47,371 bases of DNA from Candidatus Woesearchaeota archaeon (GCA_012798335.1 JAAZNJ010000004.1:1-47371); one strand, 5' to 3'; shown: positions 2,399-14,224, counted from the stretch's first letter. The notes: generated by a model from the letters alone, not told the origin. Translations and numbers: made by a program.

Positions 2399-2572
2399 CG
2401 AGCCTGCGAGGAATTGAACCTCGATTAATCGGTTTCTTCATTGATTTCAGGAATTGTGAAAAACCCGCTGGTGGTTTCCATTCCCAATTTGGGTTGGTTG
2501 CAGGAATTGTGAAAAACCCGCTGGTGGTTTCCATTCCGAAGCCGATTGTGTTATCCTTTACACCACAGGCCC
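2399..2572 (-). tRNA. tRNA-Arg (anticodon TCG) with a ~102-nt intron at position 37/38
   Basis: Exons are 2572-2536 and 2433-2399. Acceptor stem GGGCCTG/CAGGCTC, D-stem GTGT/ACAC, anticodon stem ATCGG/CCGAT with loop CTTCGG|intron|A, T-arm CGAGG-TTCAATT-CCTCG, discriminator G. Confidence 0.75.
2448..2537 (-). repeat. Two identical 37-nt units, 53 nt apart, making up most of the tRNA-Arg intron
   Basis: caggaattgtgaaaaacccgctggtggtttccattcc occurs at 2448-2484 and 2501-2537 (plus-strand text). Each unit can fold as a hairpin with GGAAT...ATTCC ends. Confidence 0.9.
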
Positions 2573-12364: not shown

Positions 12365-12883
12365 ATGAAAAAAATAAAAGTTTATTTAGAAGGAGATATT
12401 TTAATAACAAATCAGTCAGAAGCTTATTCCTTGTTAGAAAAAAGCAATTTTGGAGAGGAAATAGAAAAAAAAATAAGATATTCTTCTTTTGAAACAATCT
12501 ATTTAATGGATAATGATAAAATAGAAGTATATTCTAAAAAGTTAAAATTAAACAAAGAGGAATTGATTAAAAAGTTCTTAAAAATTGATAAAAGATTCAA
12601 CTTAAAATATTCTGTTTTTAAAGATTTGAGAAATAAAGGATATATCTTAAAAACAGGATTAAAGTTTGGGGCTGACTTTAGAGTTTATGAAAAAGGATTT
12701 AAAATAAATGAAGCTCATGCAAAATGGCTTGTATTTGTGAATCATGAAACAGATAATCTAAGACTAATTGAATTAACAGCCAAAAGCAGAGTAGCACATT
12801 CAATAAAGAAAAATCTTCTTCTTGCAATCATAGATGAAGAAGGGGATATAAGTTATTATGAAATAAGGTGGATTAAACCTTAA
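12365..12883 (+). CDS. endA: tRNA-splicing endonuclease (tRNA-intron lyase), short single-unit form
   Basis: YSVFKDLRNKGYILKTGLKFGADFRVYEKG...HAKWLV matches the catalytic C-terminal domain of archaeal EndA. Length is 172 aa. Confidence 0.85.
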   Translation: MKKIKVYLEGDILITNQSEAYSLLEKSNFGEEIEKKIRYSSFETIYLMDNDKIEVYSKKLKLNKEELIKKFLKIDKRFNLKYSVFKDLRNKGYILKTGLKFGADFRVYEKGFKINEAHAKWLVFVNHETDNLRLIELTAKSRVAHSIKKNLLLAIIDEEGDISYYEIRWIKP

Positions 12884-14134: not shown

Positions 14135-14224
14135 GGCTCTGTAGCTCAGTGTTAGAGCGCTGCTCTCATGAATAATTAGTGTTGAGAAAGGCAGAGGTCG
14201 GGAGTTAAATCCTCCTCAGAGCCA
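14135..14224 (+). tRNA. tRNA with CAT anticodon (elongator Met or Ile2) and an 18-nt intron at 14171-14188
   Basis: Acceptor stem GGCTCTG/CAGAGCC plus A73, D-arm GCTC/GAGC, anticodon stem CTGCT/GGCAG, loop CTCATG|intron|A, T-arm GGGAG-TTAAATC-CTCCT. Loop CTCA pairs with intron TGAG in a BHB-like central helix. Confidence 0.8.

Follow-up and report, generated by a model that had tools for sequence, protein, structure and literature searches.

How does a single tRNA gene come to carry an intron that is, in essence, the same sequence written twice? The question is raised by the 174-nt tRNA-Arg(UCG) gene at 2399..2572 on the minus strand of the window, by which we mean the whole 47,371-nt stretch analysed here (Candidatus Woesearchaeota archaeon, GCA_012798335.1, JAAZNJ010000004.1:1-47371). 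The host is a tiny Woesearchaeota/Pacearchaeota-type archaeon (DPANN) represented by a 610-kb, 68-contig metagenome-assembled genome (MAG) of 26% G+C, here called G000; G004 is its sister, other G-numbers denote relatives, C-numbers contigs and L-numbers element loci. Judged by homology, each of the two intron units is a copy of a ~52-nt two-hairpin dispersed repeat specific to Woesearchaeota/Pacearchaeota-type archaea. The reading we favour, to which we assign a probability of roughly 70%, is that the tRNA-Arg(UCG) is spliced in the ordinary way and that its intron carries two tandem copies, evolving in concert, of a lineage-specific repeat that resembles the Rickettsia palindromic elements (RPEs). 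It draws on the sequence of the gene, the family membership of the units, the distribution of the family, the variation in copy number and the processing enzymes encoded in the genome, from which we infer splicing, mobility and homogenisation.

Read on the minus strand, 2572-2399 is laid out as GGGCCTGTGGTGTAAAGGATAACACAATCGGCTTCGG / AATGG...GAAGAA / ACCGATTAATCGAGGTTCAATTCCTCGCAGGCTCG, that is, exon 1 (nt 1-37, 2536..2572), a 102-nt intron at the canonical 37/38 position (2434..2535) and exon 2 (nt 38-73, 2399..2433). The original prediction had given these exon coordinates together with the Arg(UCG) identity, and both are borne out: when joined (2572-2536 + 2433-2399), the exons total 72 nt, and ARAGORN identifies the product as tRNA-Arg(tcg), with a standard cloverleaf. 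The intact gene was missed by the Rfam tRNA model at its gathering threshold and by ARAGORN run without the intron option; with introns allowed (ARAGORN -i) it is found at c[2398,2573], though under the label 'SeC(tca)' i(37,102), because the program sets the 102-nt intron at 35/36. Intronless orthologues (GGCTTCGGACCGG) read CTTCGGA across the site, an anticodon loop CUUCGGA with anticodon UCG, which supports both the proposed 37/38 placement and the UCG identity. Introns at this same site in the orthologues, whose comparison had been suggested as a check, measure 0, 16, 24, 46, 51, 59, 70, 102, 136 or 149 nt. The exons are 95% identical to those of G004 and keep the full cloverleaf, and in our best reading the gene is functional. 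The only arginine tRNAs found in G000 are CCU, UCU and UCG, the last being the only CGN decoder found; CGN codons occur at 1.3 per 1000 in long open reading frames (ORFs), against 26 per 1000 for AGA and 31 per 1000 for AGR. The whole CGN box of G000 is thus apparently served by one tRNA-Arg(UCG).

The duplication within the intron stands as described. The 37-mer GGAATGGAAACCACCAGCGGGTTTTTCACAATTCCTG occurs exactly twice on the minus strand, at 2537-2501 and 2484-2448, where 0 occurrences were expected from 100 shuffles, and each unit can form a hairpin. The units are alike over 47 nt (94% identity, period 53), and the flanks of the two repeats are unlike (TTCGG vs TTGGG, and CAACC vs AAATC). 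What did not hold is the framing of the duplication as private to this gene, since the unit is a member of a dispersed family. Copy 1 of that element has its core, AATGGAAACCACCAGCGGGTTTTTCACAATTCCTGCAACC, at 2496..2535 (nhmmer E = 1.8e-13, together with pattern matches), followed at 2483..2495 by a tail hairpin, AACCCAAATTGGG (CCCAA/TTGGG), whose counterparts in other copies covary. Copy 2 lies at 2443..2482 (nhmmer E = 6e-11, and the 47-nt, 94% repeat); its core matches that of copy 1 exactly up to CCTG and has AAATC, not CAACC, at its 3' end. All of these, like the intron itself, lie on the minus strand. The 16 nt that had been taken for a spacer between the units in reality belong to the element: they comprise the last bases of its core (CAACC) and its tail hairpin (CCCAA-A-TTGGG).

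Membership of a dispersed family was apparent from three kinds of search. A BLAST search with the locus against 100 relatives returned the orthologous tRNA and, in addition, the unit alone at many unrelated places. A degenerate core pattern, AACCNCCAGCGGGTTTTTCACAANTCCNGCAACC, allowing at most 3 mismatches, gave 24 matches; the 12 genomes that held them, out of 101, all belong to the family of the window (f1), and the reversed pattern, used as a control, gave 0. When 185,579 species genomes were scanned with an exact degenerate pattern, 48 loci came up, every one of them in MAGs whose titles name Candidatus Woesearchaeota, Pacearchaeota or Nanoarchaeota/Nanoarchaeia. In all, we looked at about 60 distinct copies; the hidden Markov model (HMM) of the core used with nhmmer was built from 58 copies. 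No Rfam family fell on the element, either in the window at the gathering threshold or in 18 loci at E <= 5, where the tRNAs were the only hits, and literature searches turned up no account of a comparable element from DPANN archaea.

The consensus of the element is (A/T)TGRRAACC-NCCAGCG-GGTTYTTCA-CANNTCCNGCAACC, after which comes a variable tail, usually in the form of a small hairpin. As RNA, it comprises in order a hairpin with the loop NCCAGCG, the segment UCACA-NUCC-NGCAACC and the variable tail hairpin. Hairpin 1 has 8 bp (pairs 3:26 to 10:18) and shows compensatory changes at pairs 6:22 and 3:26; among distinct copies, 21 have A-U at 6:22 and 20 have G-C. The tail stems covary as well (CGAC/GTCG, CAAC/GTTG, CTGCGA/TCGCAG, CAGC/GCTG, CGGC/GCCG); within the orthologous pheT array, the tail stem is AGCC/GGCT in G000 vs AACC/GGTT in G004. 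In a number of copies, the tail hairpin read on the sense strand is a cUUCGg tetraloop.

The copies are placed as follows. In tRNA introns, all of which lie at 37/38, they run in the sense direction from intron nt 1-2 in Arg(UCG) (G000, G004 and the metagenome contig Ga0074198), Arg(GCG) (one MAG), Thr(GGU) (G007) and Gly(GCC) (three MAGs), and one copy lies antisense within a tRNA-Ile(UAU) intron. Copies are also found in tRNA flanks: three tandem units with a period of 52, the third decayed, start from the discriminator base of tRNA-Gly(CCC) (G000:C51:1775-1916, minus strand), and one copy lies 3 nt from tRNA-His. Furthermore, antisense copies sit flush (offset 0 or -1) to the start codons of 11 different, mostly housekeeping genes, among them those for RNase HII, PheRS-beta, ArgRS, aIF2-beta, SMC, GatB/E and a glycosyltransferase. 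In the mRNA sense these leaders read ...CUGGAGGUUYUCA(U)AUG, which places GGAGG 6-8 nt upstream of the start. At the PheRS-beta gene of G000 the array consists of 1 canonical and 3 diverged units with a period of 52 (G000:C55:8053-8282, plus strand), flush to the start of the gene on the opposite strand, and the same site is occupied in at least 4 genomes of three genera (G000, G004, G022 and another MAG); that this site is filled across three genera implies that this copy is old and conserved.

In-frame copies were found in 5 ORFs, encoding an IleRS-like synthetase, a radical-SAM protein, a methyltransferase and two small proteins of unknown function, and the C-terminal tail of GatA carries another in two species. 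The ORF copies are always read in one frame, N-(L/H)-Q-R-V-L-(H/P)-(N/S)-S-S-N, and the G000 orthologue of one element-bearing ORF, a G002 protein, lacks exactly 17 residues at the site. Read by eye, all six frames of the core appear to be open, so that the chance of agreement on one frame would be ~(1/6)^4. This one-frame rule argues that the ORF copies are translated rather than spliced. We rejected BHB (bulge-helix-bulge) splicing of the ORF and leader copies on the same rule and because neither an exon-exon helix nor a productive joined frame could be drawn; a coding role for the intronic element itself, in an antisense frame (GCWNCEKPAGGF) or a sense frame (METTSGFF), was rejected since the 53-nt period breaks the frame here. 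As a separate observation, in MAG CAYXNP01 (L047, L050, L054, L059, L070) the element lies inside a ~250-300-nt intergenic repeat that has its own flanking palindromes, ATGTTAAG...CTTAACAT, and two copies are at contig ends.

Why, then, are the two intron units letter-perfect? Arrays of 2-5 units recur at several loci in several MAGs, and their copy number varies. The Arg(UCG) intron holds 2 units in G000, 2 identical and 1 decayed unit in G004, and 1 intact and 1 decayed unit in contig Ga0074198_1000009, the one relative found when metagenome contigs were scanned with a looser exon-plus-unit pattern; the exact 42-mer spanning the inter-unit junction was not found in the JGI metagenome contigs. 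The second and third units thus decay freely in G004 and Ga0074198. The tail of unit 2 in G000 (GAAATCAATGAAGAA) is orthologous to the tail of the decayed third unit in G004, and this shared tail implies that the dimer predates the split of these two sisters, whose RtcB proteins are 91% identical and which pair with 100/100 support in a single-protein tree. The pheT leader arrays (1+3 units in G000, 1+4 in G004, 2+1 in G022) behave similarly: within one genome, distal units are closer to each other than to their counterparts in the sister genome, a pattern that we read as concerted evolution and that is seen in the tRNA-Gly(CCC) array as well. The very recent duplication offered by the original prediction thus survives in part. 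The identity is probably recent, in line with homogenisation; the origin is not, as the tandem pair is also present in G004 and Ga0074198_1000009. The letter-perfect 37 nt are best read as the product of recent gene conversion or unequal crossover, not as a new duplication.

We then considered whether an intron built in this way could be removed. C32-C35 (CUUC, 2541-2538) pairs with GAAG (2439-2436) to give a 4-bp central helix, flanked by the 5' bulge G36 G37|A (the two G at 2537-2536) and the 3' bulge AA|A38 (AA at 2435-2434), which is the canonical geometry of a 37/38 intron; both GAAG and AA are supplied by the intron tail, AATGAAGAA (2434..2442, minus strand). Forcing the cloverleaf and both 3-nt bulges gives -49.1 vs -49.9 kcal/mol for the unconstrained fold, a cost of 0.8 kcal/mol, and in the unconstrained optimum the CUUC/GAAG helix still forms, as do the cloverleaf and the 3' bulge. 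The BHB arrangement put forward earlier (CUUC/GAAG, AA|A) is thus well supported as a fold, and splicing of the intron would follow from it. The further suggestion of an alternative splice site at the second GG|AAUGG fails, because that site is preceded by AUUG, which is unable to pair with GAAG.

The enzymes expected for such a reaction are encoded in the genome. The EndA endonuclease assigned to 12365..12883 (plus strand, 172 aa) was confirmed by Pfam (PF01974, 98 bits; PF02778, 38 bits). It has one N-terminal and one catalytic domain and is the single match in a whole-assembly search, which points to the alpha4 homotetramer type, of which this is the domain architecture (PMC4090602). RtcB is encoded once in G000, on contig C63 (531 bits). 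In two relatives, RtcB is split by an intein-sized insert in an open frame of ~960-985 aa (G007:C32:2721-5567 and G010:C2:32975-35872); relative to the query, the insert falls between residues ~96 and ~93. The tRNA(CAU) gene at 14135..14224 (plus strand), whose 18-nt intron had been likened to that of the Arg gene, was recovered both by Rfam (tRNA, 54.5 bits) and by ARAGORN, i(38,18); with its intron at 37/38 and the motif CUCA/UGAG, AA|A, it is the predicted second substrate of the same EndA.

Taken as a mechanism, the favoured reading runs as follows. An alpha4-type EndA would cut the BHB formed by the anticodon stem, the C32-C35/GAAG helix and the bulges GG|A and AA|A, after which RtcB would join the exons. 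The element would act as selfish, RPE-like DNA, lodging where little harm arises, that is, in tRNA introns and flanks, in leaders and in one ORF frame; in the leaders, its reverse complement would provide GGAGG, 6-8 nt upstream of the ATG, as the site of ribosome binding. It would tend to form short tandem arrays that are homogenised by unequal crossover or gene conversion while their distal units decay, and such homogenisation would explain how the two units came to be letter-perfect although the dimer predates the sister split. In the Arg intron, the element would be mainly a passenger, its first bases, AU, giving a short outer helix near the 5' splice site.

Several observations weigh against this reading. 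In the unconstrained optimum, G36 and G37 pair with CC of the unit, leaving the 5' site unbulged, and the outer helix h' has only ~2 bp (A-U, U-A), which puts the motif at the weak end of canonical, for an alpha4 EndA that is expected to be strict. Transcription might be impeded by T5 runs on the sense strand. Between G000 and Ga0074198, the conservation of unit 1 matches that of the exons (38/40 vs 66/72), which does not fit a purely neutral passenger. As for mobility, what suggests it is the distribution of the copies and their presence or absence at orthologous sites; no terminal inverted repeats (TIRs) were seen on the element copies, most copies have no flanking direct repeats (a minority have repeats of 16-31 nt), and no partner transposase was found, an IS200-type TnpA (Y1_Tnp) being present only in G007 and G009 of the 17 genomes of the genus.

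Direct target repeats were found near gene 5' ends at L045 (19 nt), L024 (16 nt), L006 (~30 nt) and L088 (31 nt), and in three direct-repeat insertions the tail holds an 8-9-nt inverted copy of the 5' flank; in the copies at L088, L092 and L045 the tail is complementary to that flank. L088 (CAZJIV010000005.1) and L092 (JAHJUA010000090.1) have their insertion in one and the same gene, at codon 10, where 31 nt of the gene start are duplicated on either side of it, and both duplicate copies at L092 still encode MITYNDIYEA, differing at synonymous sites. The 8-nt inverted flank copy in the tails of this pair covaries (TGAAGCTG/CAGCTTCA vs CGAAGCCG/CGGCTTCG), and this pattern may have been left by the mechanism of insertion, or it may mark a regulatory hairpin at the start codon. 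Three familiar routes were rejected. A partnership with IS200/IS605 (TnpA/TnpB) fails because these genes occur in few genomes of the genus and in none that is element-rich: TnpB is clear only in G015, the element-rich genomes have neither TnpA nor TnpB, and no match of the core HMM lies near these genes. Classical target-site duplication (TSD) fails because most copies have none and the few insertions with repeats of 16-31 nt lie near gene starts. Finally, descent as a MITE (a transposable element of the miniature inverted-repeat kind), or as a palindrome-associated transposable element (PATE) derived from IS200/IS605, fails for want of TIRs, of a fixed-length TSD and of a co-occurring autonomous insertion sequence.

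The alternative that survives best overlaps with the favoured reading and does not exclude it, namely that introns are gained through the action of the element itself. On this account, which we regard as possible but somewhat unlikely, it inserts at 37/38, its 5' end becomes the 5' junction, and a tail complementary to nt 32-35 completes the BHB. Its appeal lies in the way the element begins at intron nt 1-2 in four different tRNAs and in the tRNA-Thr(GGU) gene, which has no intron in 14 of the 17 genus genomes. Of the three Thr introns, that of G007 (70 nt) holds the intact element and ends in a tail, TACCAA, exactly complementary to the final 6 nt of the exon; that of G006 (35 nt) starts ATGAAAA and that of G002 (33 nt) starts TTGAATT. 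Within G000, ARAGORN -i reports nine credible intron-bearing tRNAs, and most of the long introns start in an element-like manner with (A)TGR, a hairpin, TCACA and YTCC. Those of tRNA-Gly(GCC) (G000:C41:11841-12038) and tRNA-Ser(GCU) (G000:C65:5275-5482) are both 125 nt long with two hairpin modules each and have in common a 48-nt module at ~88% identity (z = 20.6), which was not found elsewhere in the G000 genome; a weaker common module links the Gly(GCC) and Leu(UAA) introns (z = 7.2). On the other hand, G003 (16 nt), G012 and G053 have element-free Arg(UCG) introns with the same GAAGAA-type tail, so the intron may predate the element. The copy in the tRNA-Ile intron is antisense, selection for spliceability would yield tail complementarity anyway, and the single-protein RtcB tree, which resolves only the G000+G004 pair, leaves gain versus loss of introns undecided.

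A further intron deserves mention in its own right. At G000:C23:4933-5049 (minus strand), ARAGORN reports a 'tRNA-Stop(tta)' with a 41-nt intron. In our own reading this is a tRNA-Gln(UUG) with the intron placed at 37/38 (loop CUUUGG|...GAAGAA|A). The intron tail, TTCACTCTTCAAATAAACGAAGAA, resembles that of tRNA-Arg(UCG) (z = 3.2), and the intron may derive from the same element by decay.

The second alternative gives the intron units a function as RNA, either as a module for folding or processing of the pre-tRNA or as a stable, linear or circular, protein-binding hairpin RNA; stable or circular products had been among the original suggestions. We consider it improbable. The exon-like conservation of unit 1 extends across G000, G004 and Ga0074198, the stems carry compensatory changes, some tails are cUUCGg tetraloops, and the genome encodes RtcB, an enzyme that circularises archaeal introns. 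A single RNA function, however, is a misfit with an element that works whichever way it faces with respect to transcription and that, in ORFs, is probably translated. Moreover, the second and third units decay freely, the element has no Rfam family and neither C/D nor H/ACA boxes, and close relatives manage with introns of 0-24 nt.

An assembly artefact, in which a short-read MAG has collapsed or expanded the repeat, is very hard to credit: the assembly is a 68-contig MAG, a contig of G004 ends inside the array homologous to that of tRNA-Gly(CCC), and the junction 42-mer is absent from the JGI contigs, but three independent assemblies have at least two tandem units in this intron, with differing unit states, arrays of 2-5 units occur elsewhere in several MAGs, and the repeat flanks differ as in real tandem copies. 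Scarcely any weight falls, likewise, on a pseudogene or on splicing at 35/36 to give a UCA anticodon (an opal suppressor or a selenocysteine-like tRNA): ARAGORN's label 'tRNA-SeC(tca) i(37,102)' and the rarity of CGN codons, which would lower the need for the tRNA, speak for it, but cuts at 35/36 would both fall inside the CUUC/GAAG helix and not in bulges, the orthologous loop is CTTCGGA, the exons retain their cloverleaf and their 95% identity to G004, and no other CGN decoder was found; the UCA anticodon was rejected on BHB geometry and orthologues.

Three other classes were also rejected. CRISPR spacers are unique and about 26-72 nt long, whereas the intervals here are 13-16 nt, identical within an array and made of the element's own tail hairpins. 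A box C/D small RNA of the tRNA-Trp type would have box C (RUGAUGA) and box D (CUGA), but AUGGAAA is not a box C, CUGA occurs only in unit 2 and no guide complementarity was seen by eye. An H/ACA guide RNA was rejected because its boxes are absent.

How does this gene compare with known systems? The BHB introns of the Methanocaldococcus jannaschii type (PMC4090602) share with it the 37/38 position, a 4-bp helix with nt 32-35, two 3-nt bulges, one EndA and RtcB; the intron here differs in being 102 nt long and repeat-built, in its h' of ~2 bp and in ranging from 0 to 149 nt among relatives. Rickettsia RPEs are hairpin repeats of ~100-150 nt that lie in-frame in unrelated genes, in one frame (Ogata et al. 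2000, as summarised in PMC10969869). The likeness comprises a short hairpin repeat in a tiny genome, found in intergenic regions, in RNA genes and in-frame, including in housekeeping genes, with no linked transposase. The element described here differs in its archaeal host, its length of ~52 nt, its tandem arrays and its strong association with tRNA introns and with the position just before start codons. No sequence relation to RPEs is known, nor would one be expected between hosts from separate domains, and the likeness is one of analogy only. In the Thermoproteales, related introns occur across isoacceptors, through a transposition for which no mechanism is known (Fujishima 2010, as summarised in PMC4090602; preprint 10.64898/2026.10.13.758758). 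The resemblance is that related sequences lie in different isoacceptors of one lineage (4-5 isoacceptors here); the difference is that their introns are non-canonical and matched by an (alpha-beta)2 EndA, unlike the 37/38 introns, the alpha4 type and the additional leader and ORF copies seen here. Repetitive extragenic palindromes (REPs), their composite forms bacterial interspersed mosaic elements (BIMEs) and REPINs, and MITEs (PMC10969869) are likewise short, structured, multicopy and often clustered, some copies acting as expression signals; here, in contrast, there are no TIRs, no fixed-length TSD and no co-occurring RAYT/Y1 transposase. The tRNA is therefore an ordinary member of the BHB-intron class, and the element is RPE-like without being a member of the RPEs or of the Thermoproteales introns.

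How archaeal tRNA introns arrive is still an open question. Here, one sequence family ties together tRNA introns, tRNA flanks, gene leaders and in-frame inserts in small DPANN genomes, and its copy number differs between sister species, which makes it a traceable marker of intron turnover. The naturally occurring introns of 1, 2 and 3 units are substrates on which the tolerance of an alpha4 EndA could be gauged. Since default tRNA finders miss or mislabel such genes ('SeC(tca)', 'Stop(tta)'), the tRNA inventories of DPANN MAGs are distorted. The element is also a possible archaeal counterpart of the Rickettsia RPEs. A broader proposal, which we put forward as doubtful, is that the ~52-nt element, inserting into the DNA between nt 37 and 38, is the vehicle that created tRNA introns in the Woese-/Pacearchaeota and was elsewhere kept as a ribosome-binding leader or as an in-frame insert; if true, it would provide a concrete, sequence-defined route by which archaea whose alpha4 endonuclease is strict could acquire tRNA introns.

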